64,000 nucleotides of DNA, from positions 1 through 64,000 of the IMG/VR virus record IMGVR_UViG_3300033463_000032. One strand, written 5' to 3'. A program made the position numbers and the translations under genes. A model generated the notes under the pieces. That model searched no databases. It was not told where the DNA came from and was given only the letters and a program-made list of their open reading frames with translations. Source of the stretch: a virus (taxonomy: Duplodnaviria > Caudoviricetes). The first letter of the stretch is position 1. Every line of letters starts with the position of its first letter. Of the stretch, positions 9,261 to 18,513 are shown in pieces.

Positions 9261-9500
9261 GTGATGCTTACAGCAATTTATGTCGAAAAGTTTTTGGGTA
9301 CTGACTATAGCATCATGAATAAATAAAAACTTAATATGTGACTCTAACAGCAATCATTATTCATTATTGAAAATTTGATCTGCAAAAATCGAATCTAAAT
9401 GAGTCATGAATAAGTAAAAAATAATATGTGACTTTGACAGCAATATGCTTTTTTTTTGTAACACCTAAGCCATTATTTTAGGTTTAACACATAAAGTCAT
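9261..9500 (+). repeat. Three tandem stem-ACAGCAAT-variable loop-stem units (putative ncRNA array)
   Basis: Units 9261-9316, 9338-9407, 9428-9500; covarying closing stems TGATGCT/AGCATCA, TGACTC/GAGTCA, TGACTTT/AAAGTCA; similar A-rich spacers. Confidence 0.8.
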
Positions 9501-9524
9501 GACATTATTGAAAGGAGAACAAAA

Positions 9525-10982
9525 ATGGATTTTTCAAATGCCCTAAAGAATGAAAGTGCCAAGACATATACAGAAAATGGTGCTTTAGCTTTAAATACAA
9601 CTGGTACAAAGTGTTTGGACCTTTTTGGTTGTATAGGATCTTTGAGATCAAGGTCTACAATAGAAGTAGAAAGGTTGTTTGCTGATGCTTATGCTGAGGA
9701 TAAACTTCTTGCTACAAAGATCTTGTTTTATGCCAGAGATATTCTGGAAGGTTTGGGAGAACGTAAGGTTTTCCGGGATCTTCTTACCTATTGTGCTAAG
9801 TATCATCCGGAAGCTATTGAAAATAATCTGGATCTTATTGGCGTATATGGTAGATATGATGATCTGTATTCTCTTCTTGATACTCCACTTGAAGATAAGA
9901 TGTGGAGTGTGATGAAGGATCAGTTTGAAGATGATCGTAAGAATATGGCTAAGGGTAATACAATATCTCTTTTGGCTAAGTGGATAAAGACACCTGATGC
10001 TTCTTCAAGAACTACCAGGAAACTAGGTATCTTGACTGCTAATAAGTTGGGATATTCAGTTTATGAATTCAAGAGAATTCTTAGAGCTTTGAGAAAGCAT
10101 ATAGGTATCGTAGAAAGATTTATGTCTGCCGGAGAATGGGATAAGATCAAATACCCGGAAGTTCCTTCCAGAGCTATGATGATCTATCGTAATGCTTTTC
10201 AGAGACATGATGAATATAGGTTTTCTGAATTTACCAGAAAAGCCTTAACTGGTGAAGTAAAGGTTAATTCTAAAACTCTTTATCCATATGATATAGTGGA
10301 AAAGATATATCGGAGAACTGAACTGATGGATCTTCTTGAAGCTCAATGGAAACAGTTACCTAACTATGTAGAACCAGGTACTAATGCTATAGTAATGGCT
10401 GATGTTTCTGGATCTATGTGGGGTAGGCCAATATGTACTTCTGTGGGACTTGCTATATATTTTGCTGAAAGAAACACCGGAGCATATCATAATCTTTTTA
10501 TGACATTTTCTGGAGATCCTCACGTTGTTGCTCTTAAAGGTGAAACTTTAGCTCAGAAATATAAAGAAGTCTTTGATGCAGACTGGGGATTTAATACTGA
10601 TCTTGAAGCAGCATTTCATAAGGTTTTGCAGATAGCAATAGATAATCATGTTCCACCGGAAGAGATGGTAAAGTCTATTATTGTTATTTCAGACATGGAA
10701 ATTGATTCTGCTACTTATGGTGATGATTGGTTGTTCTATGATCTGATGAAAGCCAGATATGAACAGTATGGTTATCAAATTCCTAACATAGTGTTCTGGA
10801 ATGTTAATAGCAGACATGATGTATTTCATGCTGATGCTACAAGAAAAGGTGTTCAGTTGATTTCAGGAAGTTCTGTTACATCTTTTAAGCAGATCATGGA
10901 TTCTATCGGCTTAACTCCAGTAGAGATGATGTTAAAGGTGATTAATGCTAAACGTTATGAACCAATAACAATTAAAGATTGA
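9525..10982 (+). CDS. DUF2828-family Ro60/TROVE-like protein with C-terminal vWA domain
   Basis: TENGA.A..TT...CLDLF, RDI..GLGER, LLAKW, vWA MIDAS DVSGSM, ISDMEID, VFWNV. Confidence 0.85.
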   Translation: MDFSNALKNESAKTYTENGALALNTTGTKCLDLFGCIGSLRSRSTIEVERLFADAYAEDKLLATKILFYARDILEGLGERKVFRDLLTYCAKYHPEAIENNLDLIGVYGRYDDLYSLLDTPLEDKMWSVMKDQFEDDRKNMAKGNTISLLAKWIKTPDASSRTTRKLGILTANKLGYSVYEFKRILRALRKHIGIVERFMSAGEWDKIKYPEVPSRAMMIYRNAFQRHDEYRFSEFTRKALTGEVKVNSKTLYPYDIVEKIYRRTELMDLLEAQWKQLPNYVEPGTNAIVMADVSGSMWGRPICTSVGLAIYFAERNTGAYHNLFMTFSGDPHVVALKGETLAQKYKEVFDADWGFNTDLEAAFHKVLQIAIDNHVPPEEMVKSIIVISDMEIDSATYGDDWLFYDLMKARYEQYGYQIPNIVFWNVNSRHDVFHADATRKGVQLISGSSVTSFKQIMDSIGLTPVEMMLKVINAKRYEPITIKD

Positions 10983-11023
10983 TGTATGTTCGGTGGTGCC
11001 GGAACCGGTCGAATTACATAAAT

Positions 11024-11119
11024 TCAGCAGTGGCGGAATAGGTAGACGCTTAGGATAGTTAAAGGCACAGACTATCTATAAAAGAGTGCTATGTAAGGTG
11101 CAAATCCTTACCTGCTGAA
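11024..11119 (+). ncRNA. tRNA-like RNA with a Leu/Ser-type D arm and the anticodon arm replaced by a putative pseudoknot
   Basis: Acceptor TCAGCAG/CTGCTGA; D arm GCG-GAATAGGTAGA-CGC; T arm GTAAGG-TGCAAAT-CCTTAC; no canonical anticodon loop, no CCA. Confidence 0.7.
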
Positions 11120-11127
11120 TTAAATAT

Positions 11128-11202
11128 TGAGGTATCGCCAAGTGGTAAGGCATGGGACTTTGACTCCCACATTCATAGGTTCGAATCCTGTTACCTCAAC
11201 CA
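11128..11202 (+). tRNA. tRNA-Gln(TTG)
   Basis: Cloverleaf, TGGGA-CT TTG AC-TCCCA, CCA end. Confidence 0.95.
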
Positions 11203-11206
11203 ATAT

Positions 11207-11266
11207 CACCCTATGGTGTACGGATGCACAATAGAATGTGTAAGGTTCGAGTCCTTACTAGGGTGG
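11207..11266 (+). ncRNA. Mini tRNA-like RNA lacking the anticodon arm
   Basis: CACCCTA/TAGGGTG, D arm GTGT/GCAC, T arm GTAAGG-TTCGAGT-CCTTAC. Confidence 0.7.
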
Positions 11267-11553
11267 TTTAAATTTTTAGATCGGAGTGGTTATGGAATTG
11301 ATCATATTAGTCTTTGCCACAATAAATAAGAAAGGTCGATGGTCACTACGGGTTTGTAGATTTAGTAGTAGCGGATTAACAAAAGAAATCTACTTGCTAG
11401 TCAGTTAGCAAATTGAAGATAGCCGGAATGAATTTTGAAAAATTTATGCCGACATAAGCGAAAAGTGGTCCACTTGTTCATTCTGGTGTTGGAGATGAAG
11501 GGAACAAGGAAGTTTTGATCAGTTCTTTCTTGTTCCACACTGAATACTTATAT

Positions 11554-11697
11554 GACTTCATAGTTTAAGTGGGAAAACACACGGATCTAGAGCAATAAAA
11601 AGACGGCTTATGCTCAAAATCATGTAGAGGGGATTGCCGACACATAAACCTGTTTGAGAGCAGTGTAATCTTATAGGTTCGAATCCTATTGAAGTCA
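11554..11697 (+). ncRNA. tRNA-like RNA with ~80 nt insertion in the anticodon loop
   Basis: GACTTCA/TGAAGTC acceptor, D arm GTTT/AAAC, ACAC/GTGT stem, T arm ATAGG-TTCGAAT-CCTAT. Confidence 0.7.
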
Positions 11698-11829
11698 AAA
11701 ATAAAACTTTAGATAACGGACAAGGCTTAGGCATGTGAGTTTTTGATAAGAGTGGGAGATGATATCGTTAATACCACTAATTGATAAGATAACAAAATGG
11801 TGGGATGCGAGTGGTTATCTAAAGAATAT

Positions 11830-11904
11830 GTCCTTATAGTTTAATGGTAGAACAACAGACTTTTAATCTGTGAAATGGTGGTTCAATTCCACTTGAGGAC
11901 ACCA
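11830..11904 (+). tRNA. tRNA-Lys(TTT)
   Basis: ACAGA-CT TTT AA-TCTGT, CCA. Confidence 0.95.
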
Positions 11905-11967
11905 GTAAAGAAAGGAATTGTTGGATATGAGTTATACTTATTTAAGATGGTTGGAATTTTATAAAAT

Positions 11968-12052
11968 GGGTAGGTAGTAAATCGGCAACTACACCGGACT
12001 GTAAATCCGGCTCCTTCGGGAATAGTGGGATCGACACCCACCCTGCCCACCA
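11968..12052 (+). tRNA. tRNA-Tyr(GTA)
   Basis: CCGGA-CT GTA AA-TCCGG, long variable arm, CCA. Confidence 0.92.
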
Positions 12053-12177
12053 AAGCGGTCAGATGTCTGTTGGGGAAAATCAATGAGGTTCAATCGCTAT
12101 AGCAAATATTGAATGGTACTGTTAATACACTAACAGGAGTAAACTCCCGTGGTGATGTTCGAAAAACATTAAGGATT

Positions 12178-12264
12178 GGCTGTGTTCTTTTAATGAAGGG
12201 TGCATACTTTATTAAGAAATAGATACAATTTATAGCGCATAAATGGAAGAAGTATCTAACAGTC
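12178..12264 (+). ncRNA. Three-way-junction motif, copy 1 (immediately 5' of tRNA-Glu)
   Basis: GAAATAGATAC...AAGTATCTAACAGTC shared with copies 2 and 3. Confidence 0.55.
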
Positions 12265-12270
12265 ACAAAT

Positions 12271-12348
12271 GGCATGTTAGACAAAATGGTTAAAGTCACT
12301 ACCCTTTCAAGGTAGAACTTAAGGGTTCGAGTCCCTTACATGTCACCA
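12271..12348 (+). tRNA. tRNA-Glu(TTC)
   Basis: CTACC-CT TTC AA-GGTAG, CCA. Confidence 0.95.
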
Positions 12349-12480
12349 TAGCGGAGTTTTTGGTTCAACTGTGGAAATCCAGGCAACTTCTTTTGTACCG
12401 CTATACAAAGCAATAAGAAGGTAAGTCAGTACATTGGCGAAGGGGAAGATCCGGAGTTATGACCTAATCATATATGGTGT

Positions 12481-12584
12481 GACTGTTACCTGACTGATGG
12501 TAAAATGTGCGTTATCATTGGAAATAGATACTGCTTAATGAACATGATGAAGCTTTAAGTGTGAAGTAAGTAAGTCTAACAGTC
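12481..12584 (+). ncRNA. Three-way-junction motif, copy 2 (immediately 5' of tRNA-Asn)
   Basis: GACTGTTA/TAACAGTC closing stem; GAAATAGATACTGCTT...AAGTAAGTCTA. Confidence 0.6.
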
Positions 12585-12589
12585 AAAAT

Positions 12590-12666
12590 GGGGATTTAGC
12601 TCAGTTGGTTAGAGCAATTGACTGTTAATCAATAGGTCATAGGTTCGAATCCTATAATCCCCGCCA
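12590..12666 (+). tRNA. tRNA-Asn(GTT)
   Basis: ATTGA-CT GTT AA-TCAAT, CCA. Confidence 0.95.
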
Positions 12667-12670
12667 ATAT

Positions 12671-12758
12671 GCAGATATGGAGTAATGGTATCTCAAAGGA
12701 TTGCTAATCCTTCCTAGTAGAAATGCTAGTACAAGTTCGAATCTTGTTGTCTGCGCCA
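12671..12758 (+). tRNA. tRNA-Ser(GCT)
   Basis: AAGGA-TT GCT AA-TCCTT, long variable arm, CCA. Confidence 0.93.
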
Positions 12759-12761
12759 GAT

Positions 12762-12850
12762 GGAGAAATGTCCGAGTTGGTTTATGGTGCTGGTCTTGAA
12801 AACCAGTGGATGTAAAAGTCCCGTGGGTTCGAATCCTACTTTCTCTGCCA
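12762..12850 (+). tRNA. tRNA-Ser(TGA)
   Basis: CTGGT-CT TGA AA-ACCAG, long variable arm, CCA. Confidence 0.95.
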
Positions 12851-12958
12851 TAGAGGGTTTTAATGCTGAATTGATCTGAATGACTTTACCTCTATAAATA
12901 TTAAAGGTGTAGATGATCCGGTTTTTGAAAATTTATCGTTATTAAATTTTTAAGGATT

Positions 12959-13062
12959 TAACTGCATCCTTTCAGAAAGCAATATGCACATTAGGTACAT
13001 AGGGATCTAAGGTTGCTAATGAAAATAGATACTGCTTGGTGCATAAGTAAGTCTAGCAGTTA
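12959..13062 (+). ncRNA. Three-way-junction motif, copy 3
   Basis: TAACTGC/GCAGTTA; GAAAATAGATACTGCTT-GGTGCAT-AAGTAAGTCTA. Confidence 0.55.
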
Positions 13063-13067
13063 TATAA

Positions 13068-13187
13068 CGAGAAGTCGTCTAATGGCAGGACAGCAGACAC
13101 CAATATAAGTCATTATGTGACTTTTACAGCAATACTTTGGGAAAGTCTAATCTGCATATTTAGGTTCAATTCCTAACTTCTCGACCA
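13068..13187 (+). ncRNA. tRNA body with ~53 nt anticodon loop containing an ACAGCAA element
   Basis: CGAGAAG/CTTCTCG-ACCA, D arm GTCT/GGAC, GCAGA/TCTGC stem, T arm TTAGG-TTCAATT-CCTAA. Confidence 0.8.
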
Positions 13188-13214
13188 TATATGTCCTAGT
13201 ATTCCAATAGGTAG

Positions 13215-13350
13215 AGAATATAACTTACTAGTGGTTATATTTTTAGGAAATGTGAGGTTCTTTCCTTAGTTTAAAGTTGCCAGGTGGTGGCTAGACAACC
13301 TAGAAAACATTATGATCAAATTACACCTAGATTGTGATGTTGAACCTCAA
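13215..13350 (+). ncRNA. Four-hairpin multi-pseudoknot RNA, copy 1
   Basis: Covaries with the copy at 14414-14548. Confidence 0.75.
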
Positions 13351-13356
13351 TTTTAT

Positions 13357-13442
13357 ATGGGTGTGTTGGAATTGGTCTACAAGACGGACTTAAAATCCGT
13401 TGGGTTTTACCCTTACGAGTTCGAATCTCGTCACCCATACCA
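13357..13442 (+). tRNA. tRNA-Leu(TAA)
   Basis: ACGGA-CT TAA AA-TCCGT, CCA. Confidence 0.93.
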
Positions 13443-13549
13443 AAGTAGTACTGGGTAGCATAGAGTTGCAGCCTATGAGATAATAGTAGTTCCTAACTAC
13501 TAAGCCAGACTATTTAATTTTATTTAGTTATGTAGGAGATAACTTAATT

Positions 13550-14319
13550 ATGAAAGATCGTTTGGATATTTTAAATCGAAAAGCTGAAATTGAAAGTTGG
13601 TGTGATCAAGGTTTATCTAAATTTCAAATAGCAGATAATCTTCAATGTAATATTAAAACTCTTAGAAAGTACATGTCTATTCTTAATATTGAGTATTCTG
13701 GTAGACAAGATTGGAATAAAGGAAGAACTTTTAAAAAAGGTTTAGATTTTAAAACTTATACCGGAAGAGGTGGTGTTAGTAGGGGTGCAATAAAGAAAAA
13801 ATTATTACGAGAGCAATTAAAAGAATATAAGTGTGAATGTTGTGGACTTATTCTTGGATGAATTTACCCATTCCTTTAGAGTTACATCATATAGACGGAA
13901 ACCAGACAAATGTATCTTTAGATAATTTACAGCTATTGTGTCCGAATTGTCATACACTTACAGATAATTATCGAGGAAAGGGTGTAAAAATAAAATCAAA
14001 ACAAAAGTATTGTAAAGATTGTGGAAAGTTAATATCTAGGAAAGCTATTAGATGTTCTAAATGTGCAAACATAAAAACTGCACATTTAAGAGTTTTTTCT
14101 AGCAGTAAGCCAACAAAAACTGAGTTATTGTATTATTTGATTATATATAATAATTTTTTAAGAATAGGAAAAATATATGGAGTTTCTGATAATGCAGTAA
14201 GAAAATGGTGTGTTTCTTATAATTTGCCAAAAACCGCAAAATATTGGAAACATCAAACAGATTACTTTTTAGATTCTTTTGGGAATGTAGTAGCAGATAT
14301 GGAAGATGGAAACAACTAG
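13550..14319 (+). pseudogene. HNH homing endonuclease split by a frameshift near 13850
   Basis: First ORF ends YKCECCGL; second frame continues SW...IPLELHHIDGN..N...NLQLLCPNCH, which normally form one HNH domain. Confidence 0.8.
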
Positions 14320-14337
14320 GTAGAATATAGTATTTAT

Positions 14338-14413
14338 CGCTCTATGGTCTAATGGTTTAGGATGACTGATTGTCGATCAGTAGGTAGGGGTTCAATTCCC
14401 CTTAGAGTGGCCA
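14338..14413 (+). tRNA. tRNA-Asp(GTC)
   Basis: ACTGA-TT GTC GA-TCAGT, GCCA end. Confidence 0.88.
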
Positions 14414-14548
14414 GAAGATATACCTTACTAGTGGTTATATCTTTAGGGGATTGGAATTCTCCCCTCAGTTTAAAGCTATCAGGTGGTGACTAGGTAGCCT
14501 GAAAAACACAAGGATCGAGTACACCTAGATCTAAGTGTTGAATTCCAT
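14414..14548 (+). ncRNA. Four-hairpin multi-pseudoknot RNA, copy 2
   Basis: Covaries with the copy at 13215-13350. Confidence 0.75.
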
Positions 14549-14552
14549 TTAT

Positions 14553-14629
14553 GGTCACTTAGCCTAACTGGATAGGGCAACACCCTTCTAAGGTGTGGGT
14601 TACAGGTTCAAATCCTGTAGTGATCACCA
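14553..14629 (+). tRNA. tRNA-Arg(TCT)
   Basis: ACACC-CT TCT AA-GGTGT, CCA. Confidence 0.95.
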
Positions 14630-14730
14630 GAGTCACTTATCCACATAGTAGACTCCTGTTTTATTAACTTGCTTTATGTGAAATTCATAGCCAGATACTC
14701 CACTCATCTGATCGTTATAGTCGATAACAT

Positions 14731-14779
14731 CTTGATCTGTATGGTTGGGTACATATCCAGTTCAAGTCTGGAGATCAAG
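14731..14779 (+). ncRNA. Mini tRNA-like RNA (acceptor + T arm, no anticodon arm)
   Basis: CTTGATCT/AGATCAAG; T arm TCCAG-TTCAAGT-CTGGA. Confidence 0.55.
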
Positions 14780-14916
14780 TTTCATAAAGTCATAAACCAT
14801 CTTTGGGAAGTTTTATAAACATAATAATAGTATAACAATCAACATTCATAACATTAGTTCTCCTTTTTCCAAAGATGGTTTCTTATGACTTATTTAATAA
14901 AGATTAAAATATTTTA

Positions 14917-14950
14917 AAGACTAGATGAATACATTCTCTAGTCTTTTTCT
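14917..14950 (+). terminator. Intrinsic terminator ending the tRNA island
   Basis: AAAGACTAGA...TCTAGTCTTT followed by T run. Confidence 0.7.
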
Positions 14951-15019
14951 TTGTTGACATTACTGTAATTTATACTTAATCTATGGTTATCTAAATTAAT
15001 AGAAATGAGGTAATAAATT

Positions 15020-15424
15020 ATGGCAAAATTAGGTAGGCCTACTAAGGATGGTGTAAGTTTCAATTGTAAGTTAAGCAGCAAGATTTCAGAAGAACTGGAA
15101 TTTATATCTAAATTAGAAGGTAAGACAAAGACCAGTATTGTTGAAGATGCTATAGCAGAATATTTAAATCCTTATAGAAATTCTAAAGGTAATATTTCTT
15201 TTGTTCCGGCATATCTTTTAAGTGGTGCATCAGAATTGGAAAGAAGGGTTGCTGAAATAGAAGGTAGAGAAGTAGAGATAACAAAGGAAAAGTGTTTTAT
15301 TATTGAAGAAACCTCTATGTTTGGAGCTCCATATTATAAGATCTATAACCCGGAAATTAAGAACATAATGAAAGTACCTGCTAGTGATATTGAATTTATA
15401 GAACAAGTTGGTGGTAATAAATGA
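15020..15424 (+). CDS. Ribbon-helix-helix-type DNA-binding protein overlapping the terminase start
   Basis: GRPTK...SFNCKL...LEFISK..GKTKTSIVEDAI; TTGACA at ~14955. Confidence 0.65.
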   Translation: MAKLGRPTKDGVSFNCKLSSKISEELEFISKLEGKTKTSIVEDAIAEYLNPYRNSKGNISFVPAYLLSGASELERRVAEIEGREVEITKEKCFIIEETSMFGAPYYKIYNPEIKNIMKVPASDIEFIEQVGGNK

Positions 15425-18400
15425 CTTTAAATAATGAAAAGATAGATAAATTATTATCTACTCTTTCTGATAGTGAACAAGAATGTGTAAGAACTATTCT
15501 TAAAGAGTACACTAAAAAAGGATCTTCTGAATTATTAAATGGATTATATGAAAACGACTTTACGGAAGTTCCTGTCAGCATAGATGAATTTATTGAGTCT
15601 GATCAGTATGCCGGATGGTTTACTGGTAATGGTAAACAGATATTTCCTTATTGGAGAAAGAAACTAAGAGAAATCTTTGATGAAAAGAATAATTATTCAG
15701 AGATAGTACTTGGTGGTTGTCTTACAGGTGATACAGTAATTCCTTTACTTAATGGTAAAAAAGTAACTATGTCAGAATTGGTTGCTATAGGTGATCTAGA
15801 TGAGTATGTGTATTCTTATGACTTAGAAACAAACAGATATGTACCAGGACATTTGGTACAAGCATTTTCTACTGGCATAAAAGAAGTTTATGAAATAATT
15901 TTAGATGATGGTTCATCATTCAAAGCTACATCTACACATAAGTTTCTTACTAGAGATAAACATTGGAAATCAATAGATACTGGATTATCTATTGGTGATA
16001 GTTTAATGCCTTTATATAGAACTATAAATGAAAATGGATATGAAGTTATACAACATCCGCAAAAAGATGGTTCATATGTTGAAGAATTTACTCATAAGAT
16101 GGTTCTTAATAATAAAAGAGGTGATTCAGAAAATCTTTTTGTTACACATCATAGAGATGAAAATAAACTTAATAATGATCCTAGAAATTTATTAGCAGTT
16201 GATAGACATAAACATTGGTTATATCATGCACATCATGGTGGAACTCATTTTAAGAATTTTAATGATGATCGCAAAAATGGTAGGCTGTCTAGTGAACAAT
16301 ATGCTTACTTGTTAGAAAGTGCTAAAAAAGGTTGTATATCTAGATGGAGCATTGAAGAAGAACATCAAAAAATGTCCAACTTAACTACTAAGCGTATGAA
16401 TAGTGGTTTAGCAAAATATATGTCTGATAAGGCAAAATCTAGTGAATACTGTATAAAAAAGAGATCTGAAAAGATTTCTAAACAAAATACAGATTCTTCT
16501 ATGATATTTGCACAGCAAGTGGCAAAAGCTTGTAAAATATCTAGACTTGCAATAGATATATATGGTGAATTATCAGAACAAACTTATAATCAAATTCGTA
16601 AGGATTATGGTTTCAAGTGTGGCTATCCAGCATATAAGTCAATTATTGCTAGAATTTCAAATGAAGAATTATATGATAGAGCCGTTAATTATAATCATAG
16701 AATAGTTTCTATAACTAGGATTGGTTATGAAGAAGTTTATGATCTTACTGTAGAAAAGTATCATAATTTCTGTTTAGATTGTGGTATTGTAGCACATAAT
16801 TCAATCGGTTGCGGAAAGTCTACTATAGCAGTAATAGGACTTGCTTATTCTTTATACTGGTTGATGTGTCTTAAAGATCCTAATCCTTATTTTGGTTTAG
16901 GTAGAGGTGATACAATCTATATAGTATTCTTTAATGCTACACTTCAATTATCAAGGGGTGTTGCTTATTCTAAATTCCAGGATCTTTTACAACATTCTCC
17001 CTGGTTTCTTGCTAGAGGTACAATATCCGGTACTAAGTATCTTGAATACACTCCTAATAAAACTGAAAACTCTCATATAGCATTTACTGTAGGTTCACAA
17101 CCGGAACATAGCTTAGGTAAGGCTATTGCTGGAGGCATATTAGACGAGTGCAATTTTACGAAGGGAGCAAATATAGAGATTGAGAAATCTAAGATTATGG
17201 AAACATATACATCAGTACTTGCCAGAATTAAATCAAGATTCATAGTAGGTGGTAAGGTAAGAGGCAGATTGTTTCTTGTATCTTCTAAGAAATCTGAATA
17301 TGACTTTATTGAAGCATATGTAAGAAAAGTAAAAGGAAATCCGGGAGTTTATATAGCAGAAGCCAGACTTTATGAATTAAAAGCAGTTGCTTTTAGTGGT
17401 GAAAAGTTTAGAGTGGCCGTAGGAGGCTCTAATTTGCCCTCTAGGATCATTCCAGATGATGAAGATAGTGAAACATACATAGCACAAGGATATGAGATAG
17501 AAGCCGTTCCTATTGAGTTAAAACAGGACTTCCAATTGGATATGACCAGGGCATTAAGAGATCATTGTGGAATTGCTGTATCTGGTGTAACAAGATTTAT
17601 TGCGTATACATCACTTGAAAAATGTATTATTCCACAAAAGAATCCCTTTAAATCTAATGTTATATATGTTGGTATGTTAGATCAATTGAAATATGAAGAT
17701 TTCTTTGAACCTCATTTGGTTCCACAAGAAATCTATACTAAACCATTGTTTATTCATTTTGACTGTTCATTAACAGGTGATAGAACTGGTATAAGTTGTA
17801 TTGCTGTTTTAGGTTATACAAATAGAGAAGGCTATGATTCATTTACTGGTGAGCATGTGGAAATTAGAGAATTAGCATTTAGACAAGTATTTTCTCTTGG
17901 AATTCAATGTCCTAGTGGTAGTGAAATTTCTTTTAGAAAGAATAGAGAATTCATTTATTATCTTAAATATACTCTAGGTTGGAATATAAAAGGTATTTCT
18001 CTAGATTCATTCCAATCTGCTGATCTAAAACAAAGTTTTATTACTGCTGGTTTTGAAGATACTTCTATAGTATCTCTTGATAGAAAACCGGATGGTTATC
18101 AATTTTTTAAAACAGCATTAATAGAAAGAAGAATACAAGTATTATCTAATCAGCAAGAATTATTTAAAGAAATAGTTGATCTTAAACAAGACAATCTTAC
18201 TGGTAAAGTAGATCACCCTATAGATGGTTCTAAAGATATTGCAGATAGCTTTGCTGGTGCTATCTATAATGCTTCTTTACATGATGGTCAGTTTGCTTTT
18301 CATCTTGTTGATAATGCTATGTTATTCGGTGAAGTTAATGACGTTCCTTTAGATGATACTGTTGACTTTGTTAATGGTCTTATTTCTAATCCTAATAATG

Positions 18401-18513
18401 CTATTATGAATAGACCAAGACCTAATAACCAGAATAATAATCAGAACAATGGTAATGAAAATCTTTCTAATCCCTTTGCAGAAGATTCTATTAATGGTTT
18501 CTTAGCATGGTAA
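15421..18513 (+). CDS. Terminase large subunit containing an intein
   Basis: Spliced Walker A GG|SIGCGKST, Walker B ILDE, C-terminal nuclease (HFDCS, KVDHP..GSKDIADS). Confidence 0.92.
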   Translation: MTLNNEKIDKLLSTLSDSEQECVRTILKEYTKKGSSELLNGLYENDFTEVPVSIDEFIESDQYAGWFTGNGKQIFPYWRKKLREIFDEKNNYSEIVLGGCLTGDTVIPLLNGKKVTMSELVAIGDLDEYVYSYDLETNRYVPGHLVQAFSTGIKEVYEIILDDGSSFKATSTHKFLTRDKHWKSIDTGLSIGDSLMPLYRTINENGYEVIQHPQKDGSYVEEFTHKMVLNNKRGDSENLFVTHHRDENKLNNDPRNLLAVDRHKHWLYHAHHGGTHFKNFNDDRKNGRLSSEQYAYLLESAKKGCISRWSIEEEHQKMSNLTTKRMNSGLAKYMSDKAKSSEYCIKKRSEKISKQNTDSSMIFAQQVAKACKISRLAIDIYGELSEQTYNQIRKDYGFKCGYPAYKSIIARISNEELYDRAVNYNHRIVSITRIGYEEVYDLTVEKYHNFCLDCGIVAHNSIGCGKSTIAVIGLAYSLYWLMCLKDPNPYFGLGRGDTIYIVFFNATLQLSRGVAYSKFQDLLQHSPWFLARGTISGTKYLEYTPNKTENSHIAFTVGSQPEHSLGKAIAGGILDECNFTKGANIEIEKSKIMETYTSVLARIKSRFIVGGKVRGRLFLVSSKKSEYDFIEAYVRKVKGNPGVYIAEARLYELKAVAFSGEKFRVAVGGSNLPSRIIPDDEDSETYIAQGYEIEAVPIELKQDFQLDMTRALRDHCGIAVSGVTRFIAYTSLEKCIIPQKNPFKSNVIYVGMLDQLKYEDFFEPHLVPQEIYTKPLFIHFDCSLTGDRTGISCIAVLGYTNREGYDSFTGEHVEIRELAFRQVFSLGIQCPSGSEISFRKNREFIYYLKYTLGWNIKGISLDSFQSADLKQSFITAGFEDTSIVSLDRKPDGYQFFKTALIERRIQVLSNQQELFKEIVDLKQDNLTGKVDHPIDGSKDIADSFAGAIYNASLHDGQFAFHLVDNAMLFGEVNDVPLDDTVDFVNGLISNPNNAIMNRPRPNNQNNNQNNGNENLSNPFAEDSINGFLAW
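15718..16800 (+). mobile_element. Intein (361 aa) with HNH endonuclease, inserted in the terminase P-loop
   Basis: CLTGDT start, TSTHKF block B, HHRDENKLNNDPRNL, VYDLTVEKYHNF...HN|S end. Confidence 0.93.

Follow-up and report, generated by a model that had tools for sequence, protein, structure and literature searches.

The transfer RNA (tRNA) clusters of large phages hold small RNAs that await explanation; the cases in T4 and T5 have been known for decades. The question raised by the locus described here is what two similar RNAs of ~135 nucleotides (nt), encoded in the tRNA cluster of a rumen phage (Duplodnaviria; Caudoviricetes; IMG/VR record IMGVR_UViG_3300033463_000032), might be. The window analysed was 64,000 nt long (positions 1 to 64,000 of the record). 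It makes up the first half of a phage genome of 128,410 bp, which has direct terminal repeats and ~32% G+C. Nearly all genes in the window are on the + strand. The original prediction, made without database searches, had described two copies of a four-hairpin RNA wedged between tRNA genes, with three pseudoknots and clear covariation, and had proposed a ribozyme, a nuclease-resistant RNA or a protein decoy.

Fold and covariation of the two copies

Both copies were confirmed by direct inspection of the sequence. Copy 1 (unit U4 below) runs on the + strand from 13214 to 13349, from the first hairpin (P1) through the 3' strand of the pseudoknot, and is followed by a 7-nt tail (AUUUUAU) and tRNA-Leu (UAA; 13357-13442, + strand). 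Copy 2 (unit U5) runs on the same strand from 14414 to 14547. It begins immediately after the encoded CCA of tRNA-Asp (GUC; 14338-14413, + strand) and is followed by a 5-nt tail (UUUAU) and tRNA-Arg (UCU; 14553-14629, + strand). The description of the RNAs as wedged between tRNA genes holds for copy 2, which is flush between tRNA-Asp and tRNA-Arg. It needs correction for copy 1, which starts ~25 nt after a tRNA-shaped RNA (13068-13187) that was not called by ARAGORN, and ends 7 nt before tRNA-Leu. All strings quoted in the prediction were found, namely AGGAAA/TTTCCT versus AGGGGA/TCCCCT for P2, TGAGGTTC/GAACCTCA versus TGGAATTC/GAATTCCA for the P2 loop and 3' tail, and AGGTG and CACCT in both copies; TTACTAGTGG and AGTTTAAAG are invariant.

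The copies were aligned over 13212-13352 and 14412-14550 (+ strand) and differ at 38 of 141 aligned columns. BLAST of copy 1 against copy 2 gave 77% identity across 113 nt, and no further copy was found in the 128,410-bp genome. No conserved open reading frame (ORF) spans the copies or is common to both. The + strand of the copies folds more stably than the - strand; this, together with several G-U pairs, identifies + as the RNA strand, the same as for the tRNAs.

The proposed fold contains 53 pairs in nine helices, counted on the two-row alignment. Standard pairs were present in 106 of 106 cells, so that all 53 pairs are kept in both copies. In twelve pairs both sides had changed, and in two only one side, still leaving a compatible pair; no pair was broken. 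Of the 38 differing columns 26 fall in paired columns, every one of them compensated. In a shuffle control, 0 of 500 alignments reached the observed value by any measure. When the 3' partners were slid by 1-3 columns, pairing fell to 24-49% of cells, with at most two double changes. This pattern of compensation is not explicable by drift after duplication, and both copies must therefore be under selection for the same RNA fold. Covariation shows the fold of the two copies, and the compact pseudoknotted RNA of the original prediction is real.

All helices are on the + strand. The P1 hairpin (copy 1 13214-13244, pairing 13214-13225 with 13233-13244; copy 2 14414-14444) has 11 pairs, with one double and one single change. 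Its 9-nt loop (L1) holds the invariant UUACUAGUG, the centre of which, ACUAGU, is palindromic. The P2 hairpin (copy 1 13245-13266, pairing 13245-13250 with 13261-13266; copy 2 14445-14450 with 14460-14465) has 6 pairs with two double changes. The P2 loop forms the 5' strand of the pseudoknot helix (13253-13260 in copy 1, 14452-14459 in copy 2), which pairs with the 3' strand at 13342-13349 (GAACCUCA) in copy 1 and 14540-14547 (GAAUUCCA) in copy 2, giving 8 pairs with three double changes. The central arm (copy 1 13267-13302; copy 2 14466-14501) comprises helices 5-7 with four double changes. In copy 1 coordinates it is closed by P2b (3 bp, 13267-13269 with 13300-13302; one double change) and continues in P3 (13276-13281 with 13289-13290 and 13296-13299; three double changes). 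The arm carries L3 (AGGUGGU, 13282-13288), the bulge CUAG (13291-13294) and the junction UUUAAAG. The P4 hairpin (copy 1 13306-13341, pairing 13306-13317 with 13330-13341; copy 2 14505-14539) has 10 pairs with two double changes, and 0 nt separate it from the pseudoknot 3' strand; its loop, L4, contains UACACCUA. The two copies do not differ in L1, L3, the UACACCUA portion of L4, the CUAG bulge or the UUUAAAG junction.

Covariation thus gives good support to P1, P2, the P2-loop/3'-tail helix, P2b, P3 and P4, and to one pseudoknot of the H type. P2 and the helix between its loop and the 3' end use separate nucleotides, loop 1 is 1-2 nt and loop 2 is 0 nt, and the long third loop carries P3 and P4. 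Of the three pseudoknots that had been predicted, this one alone has covariation, with two double changes in P2 and three in the P2-loop/3'-tail helix. The pairings of L3 with L4 (AGGUG/CACCU, 5 bp) and of L1 with the CUAG bulge of P3 (4 bp) involve invariant bases only, so that covariation speaks neither for nor against them. Four bovine gut DNA runs from two studies carry the identical sequence with 0 variants inside either copy, and therefore give no population-level covariation.

Five paralogous units ahead of tRNA genes

A covariance model (R1) was built from the two copies. With speed filters off, R1 aligned at full length to 12925-13066 with a score of 15.8 bits (E ~0.002-0.02, depending on the stretch searched). 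This match corresponds to the third of three further units, U1-U3, which go beyond the two copies of the original prediction and are new here. U1 (12154-12265, + strand) has P1 GAUGUU/AACAUU, P2 AAGGAU/GUUCUU, pseudoknot helix UGGCUGU/ACAGUCA and P4 UAGAUAC/GUAUCUA, and a CAAAU tail precedes tRNA-Glu at 12271. U2 (12458-12585, + strand) has a weak P2 (GGU/ACC) and a pseudoknot or closing helix UGACUGUU/AACAGUCA, with an AAAU tail before tRNA-Asn at 12590. U3 (12927-13062, + strand) has P2 AAGGAU/AUCCUU and pseudoknot helix UAACUGC/GCAGUUA, with a UAUAA tail before the tRNA-shaped RNA at 13068. The corresponding helices in the two copies are UGAGGUUC/GAACCUCA (pseudoknot) and AGGAAA/UUUCCU (P2) in U4, and UGGAAUUC/GAAUUCCA and AGGGGA/UCCCCU in U5. 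At the position of AGGUG/CACCU, U3 has the loop-loop complement AUGCAC/GUGCAU; by eye, U1 and U2 have 4-bp complements only.

The five units share one blueprint. A P1 hairpin is followed without a gap by the P2 5' strand, then by a 0-2-nt linker, a strand of 7-8 nt and, at once, the P2 3' strand. The 3' half consists of the P3 arm, a GAAA-containing linker, P4 and, after 0 nt, a strand complementary to the P2 loop. Each unit ends in an AU-rich tail of 4-7 nt, after which the 5' end of tRNA-Glu, tRNA-Asn, the tRNA-shaped RNA at 13068, tRNA-Leu or tRNA-Arg follows for U1 to U5, respectively. The H-type arrangement of the two copies, with 0-nt junctions between P2 loop and P2 3' strand and between P4 and pseudoknot 3' strand, thus recurs in U1-U3. 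Across the five units the pseudoknot helix shows up to four pair types per position. At the level of sequence, the GAAA run in the linker before P4 is kept in 5/5 units and UUAGG or UAAGG at the P1/P2 junction in 4/5; no other sequence feature is family-wide. The five-unit alignment was made by hand, since MAFFT misaligned the 3' ends, and pairs were counted by script without a family-wide model.

A descriptor of the architecture, anchored on tRNA 5' ends, was run on 153 ARAGORN tRNAs from 1.38 Mb of phage DNA, this genome included. It matched only tRNA-Glu, tRNA-Leu and tRNA-Arg of this genome and no tRNA in other phage sequences. U3 was skipped because its downstream gene is not called by ARAGORN, and U2 because of its weak P2. 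A strict descriptor without the anchor gave a few chance matches per genome, so that significance comes from the association with tRNA starts. The two copies are shown by these data to be the closest pair of a five-member paralogous family with a shared blueprint and a common position before tRNAs. The kinship of U1-U3 to the two copies is based on the shared architecture and the weak R1 score, and there is a small chance that the likeness arose by convergence within the island. With five members, each just 5' of a tRNA, interpretation shifts towards tRNA-punctuated processing.

The tRNA island, its relatives and known phage RNAs

The units lie in a tRNA/small-RNA island of ~4 kb (10983-15019) that is almost without ORFs. 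It is opened by a Ro60/TROVE-like gene (9525-10982; Pfam DUF2828 and DUF7788) and flanked on the other side by an intein-bearing ORF of 1030 amino acids, followed by a T4-gp20-type portal gene. Ten tRNAs were found in the island by both ARAGORN and Rfam, and one more, with a large insertion, by Rfam. In the 1030-residue ORF (15421-18513), Pfam Intein_splicing matched residues 108-460, with an HNH-like insert inside the intein; its host protein gave a weak match to the terminase large subunit. Inteins also occur in some portal homologs (P0042, P0096) of the protein collection. Between the two copies lies an HNH gene (13550-14319) split by a frameshift. Its 5' part (ORF 13550-13861) ends in YKCECCGLILG and a stop, and its 3' part (ORF 13837-14319), in another frame, carries the motif LELHHIDGN and matched Pfam HNH_3 and HNH, both just below cut-offs. 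The split reflects either decay of a homing endonuclease or a mistake in the assembly.

Other small elements were noted in and beside the island. The ~25-nt spacer 5' of copy 1 (13188-13213), which follows the tRNA-shaped RNA, could form a small hairpin, CCUAG..CUAGG-like, at 13195-13211, which has no counterpart before copy 2. A structured RNA at 11698-11829, with an 11-bp closing stem CUUUAGAUAAC/GUUAUCUAAAG, ends 5 nt before tRNA-Lys; like the five units it ends just 5' of a tRNA, but its fold differs. Units with the ACAGCAAT handle, which marks putative Ro60 partners, were found three times before the Ro60/TROVE-like gene (9261-9520) and a fourth time inside the tRNA-shaped RNA 13068-13187. 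The pattern TGTGACTNTNACAGCAAT is common to 45 IMG/VR loci.

The original prediction had recognised no family, and this was borne out: none of the 4227 models of Rfam 15 overlapped 13212-13352 or 14412-14550 at E<=10, and the only matches at gathering score were to tRNAs. Searches of INPHARED phages (megablast, blastn) gave chance matches only, including a 21-nt exact match in LR756501 that falls in coding sequence. Pattern scans were judged by eye and with R1. In IMG/VR, the exact pattern TTACTAGTGG..AGTTTAAAG gave 8 matches, all by chance, CAGGTGGTGNCTAG..TACACCTAG gave 0, and CTAGTGG..GTTTAAAG..AGGTGG gave one chance match. The U1-U3 motif AATAGATAC..TCTARCAGT, which is too loose, gave at least 115 matches in IMG/VR, none adjoining a tRNA. 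Scans of JGI metagenomes (10 matches) and GTDB genomes (12 matches, including an SMC-type coding sequence in four metagenome-assembled genomes) gave chance matches only. None of the 45 IMG/VR loci with Ro60-type RNAs, collected with the ACAGCAAT-handle pattern, contains the pseudoknotted RNA. R1 found no credible match around 4 related Ro60-like genes, around 31 related portal genes or in nine whole related virus records, a set that left out the two closest relatives by portal, P0001 (87% identity) and P0002 (79%). No antisense target of the invariant loops beyond chance 7-8-mers was found in the phage genome, and a promoter/terminator scan did not exceed the level of shuffled sequence.

The closest complete relative in IMG/VR (127 kb, portal 62% identical; L025) has none of the five units. 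It shares, at 100% identity, a 177-nt stretch containing a tRNA mimic and tRNA-Gln (11026-11202; L025 5442-5618). Identity is 94% for tRNA-Ser and 78-80% for two other island RNAs; the structured RNA 11698-11829 is 80% conserved there (L025 6153-6256). Since other island RNAs are common to this relative and the five units are not, the island is a mosaic, and its RNA modules are apparently exchanged among phages. On the sequences compared, the five-unit family appears specific to this lineage.

Small non-coding RNAs within or beside a tRNA cluster are also encoded by the large lytic phages T4 and T5, in clusters that hold homing endonuclease genes as well (segB, hegC, hegD). In T4 (NC_000866), rnaC (139 nt) and rnaD (119 nt), the species 1 and 2 RNAs, adjoin tRNA-Arg. 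In T5 (NC_005859), six 'stable RNAs with unknown functions' of 103-172 nt lie among the tRNAs (RNAI, RNAIII, RNA1, RNA2, RNA2H and RNAIV). The copies are likewise encoded in a phage tRNA cluster on the tRNA strand. RNAIII of T5 abuts the 5' end of tRNA-His, much as the units end 4-7 nt before theirs, whereas rnaC and rnaD of T4 come after the last tRNA and not before one. The roles of the T4 RNAs have been stated as unknown (PMC3014915). R1 with filters off gave no credible match in NC_000866 69500-73500 or NC_005859 29500-34000, the best being 12.2 bits in a T4 coding region, and the anchored pseudoknot descriptor found nothing before T5 tRNAs. By these comparisons the fold of the two copies is new, though the kind of locus is known. 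Type III antitoxin RNAs of the ToxI kind are tandem repeats of a ~34-36-nt pseudoknot beside an endoribonuclease toxin gene, whereas the copies are ~135 nt, 1.2 kb apart and not in tandem; the sole ORF between them is the HNH endonuclease, and no dedicated toxin search was made.

Proposed processing, alternatives and meaning

With moderate confidence, the units are read as encoding stable ~135-nt non-coding RNAs that would be cut from a tRNA-punctuated transcript, with RNase P acting on the 3' side and the 3' end locked in the pseudoknot. Transcription of the island would yield one long precursor or a few of them, with the tRNAs as punctuation. RNase P, cutting where the downstream tRNA begins, would create the 3' end of the RNA, and 3'-end processing of the upstream tRNA would free its 5' end. 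With the 3' end held in the pseudoknot and only a short AU-rich overhang exposed, 3'-to-5' exonucleases would be slowed and the RNA would accumulate. The invariant loops (UUACUAGUG, UUUAAAG, AGGUGGU and UACACCUA) would make tertiary contacts or present a surface to a partner, most plausibly a protein; candidates are a host factor titrated by the RNA and the Ro60-like protein of the phage itself. U at -1, which canonical RNase P substrates prefer, is present in four of the five AU-rich 4-7-nt tails, and this was counted in favour of an RNase P cut. The nuclease-resistant RNA proposed originally would fit this anatomy, as the last 7-8 bases before the short tail are paired in the pseudoknot in all five units, and the role of protein decoy is possible.

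A similar working principle is seen in MALAT1 and MEN-beta with mascRNA, where RNase P cuts at a tRNA-like structure and the 3' end so produced is protected by a triple helix. The likeness is in principle only: a downstream tRNA-type structure sets a 3' end that is made by RNase P and buried in higher-order structure. That system is eukaryotic, is not homologous and uses a U-A-U triple helix rather than an H-type pseudoknot; the downstream elements in the phage are real tRNAs, and their part in processing is a proposal.

Several points weigh against a punctuated, RNase P-matured RNA. What is said of transcription, processing sites and stability is inference, as no RNA run is among the sequencing runs listed for this DNA. 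Since searches beyond this phage brought up no homolog, the comparisons draw wholly on paralogs of a single genome. Copy 2 directly follows an encoded CCA; a resistant RNA downstream complicates exonucleolytic maturation of the tRNA 3' end, so that an endonuclease cut must be assumed. Finally, a role in pre-tRNA handling that is purely cis is neither established nor ruled out by how complex the fold is.

Such a cis role, in which the units are leader modules that have no job of their own and serve the downstream tRNA, is considered unlikely. They might prevent pairing between leader and tRNA body in a dense array, offer RNase P a short single-stranded leader, or stabilise the precursor, and the fixed geometry of all five units, 4-7 nt before a tRNA-type gene, is what such a leader would show, as is an architecture that is conserved across them while the loop sequences are not. 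A plain hairpin would suffice for insulation, however, and other tRNAs of the island (two tRNA-Ser and tRNA-Asp) have no such leader. Moreover, four loop/junction sequences are invariant in the two closest copies while the stems drift, which suggests that the loops themselves are under selection. Trimming of the adjoining tRNA by a small self-cleaving ribozyme is highly improbable. Theta ribozymes, which are minimal members of the HDV-like group (HDV, hepatitis delta virus), process tRNA 3' trailers in gut phages and are, like the present RNAs, small, compact, pseudoknotted and next to tRNA genes in gut or rumen Caudoviricetes (PMC10879173), and copy 2 begins immediately after the tRNA-Asp CCA. 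Copy 1, however, is not flush with the RNA upstream but ~25 nt away, no Rfam ribozyme family matched at E<=10, and no candidate catalytic core sequence common to the five units was found. A theta ribozyme follows its tRNA and folds as a nested double pseudoknot, P1-P2-P3-P1.1-P4, whereas the phage RNA precedes a tRNA and lacks the P3/L3 hairpin that an HDV-like fold needs between its two 5' strands (PMC10879173). There is no room for the P3 of the HDV-like class, which is defined by P1.1 and a catalytic C as well, since the P2-loop strand is followed by the P2 3' strand with 0 nt between them. The ribozyme suggestion of the original prediction was accordingly not upheld: no covariance model matched, and the strand order (P2 5', pseudoknot 5', P2 3', two hairpins, pseudoknot 3') is unlike HDV-like or pistol ribozymes. 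Scarcely credible is the reading of the copies as DNA-level direct repeats, serving as recombination or homing sites around the HNH endonuclease cassette (13550-14319). They do bracket tRNA-Leu, the frameshifted HNH gene and tRNA-Asp, but twelve compensatory double substitutions with 0 disruptive ones, together with strand-specific G-U pairs, are the signature of selection on RNA pairing and not on DNA sequence, and U1-U3 show the same fold with no association to the HNH gene.

The remaining readings concern partners of the RNA. That it is a cofactor of the phage Ro60-like protein (9525-10982), or a substrate passed by it to exonucleases, is doubtful. After an RNase P cut, a helix with a short single-stranded 3' tail would have the geometry that Ro60 rings accept, and an island of small RNAs opened by a Ro60-like gene recalls the Y RNAs (YrlA type) with Ro60/Rsr. 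Against this, no Y RNA, YrlA or tRNA model matched the copies and no tRNA-like module was detected in them; the ACAGCAAT handle occurs at 9270, 9347, 9437 and 13126 only and is in neither copy, and the pseudoknotted RNA is missing from phages whose Ro60-like genes are related (62-66% identity). Self-assembly, in which the palindromic L1 (ACUAGU) and L3/L4 (AGGUG/CACCU) would pair between molecules to give dimers or larger RNA-only assemblies of the kind shown for ROOL and GOLLD, is very unlikely. L1, L3 and L4 are identical in both copies, which would permit homo- and hetero-pairs, and the 0-nt junctions suggest end-to-end stacking of P1, P2, the pseudoknot helix and P4; if the helices stack in this way, a single P3 arm could hardly reach both L1 and L4 within one molecule. 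The loops show no covariation, however, short palindromes such as CUAG and UUUAAA are frequent in AT-rich DNA, and the models of ROOL and GOLLD gave no match to the copies. ROOL is ~580 nt long, and the RNA of the copies is at most about a quarter of that size. ROOL and GOLLD are phage or prophage RNAs that often lie near tRNA islands and have multiple pseudoknots and conserved kissing loops; ROOL came first from rumen samples, GOLLD members are often > 800 nt, and loop pairings first taken as tertiary proved in part to be intermolecular (PMC12286853). Both are thus several times larger than the ~135-nt RNAs here. A modular platform would combine a constant pseudoknot chassis, exonuclease-resistant and matured by RNase P, with variable loops, L1 and L3/L4 pairing between molecules or docking on the Ro60-like ring; this is a distinctly speculative reading, in which little confidence is placed.

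The family so far comes from one rumen phage. The locus is unusually clean, with a fold set by compensatory changes, five paralogs on one blueprint and a fixed geometry to tRNA 5' ends. A direct prediction follows from that geometry, namely that RNase P makes the 3' end, which the pseudoknot then protects. If the modular platform were true, the RNAs would correspond in miniature to the ROOL/GOLLD cages known from phage tRNA islands. If the preferred reading of RNase P-matured, pseudoknot-protected RNAs is true, the phage uses tRNA punctuation to manufacture stable non-coding RNAs, and the fold would be a compact, naturally occurring scaffold with which RNAs could be stabilised in bacteria.

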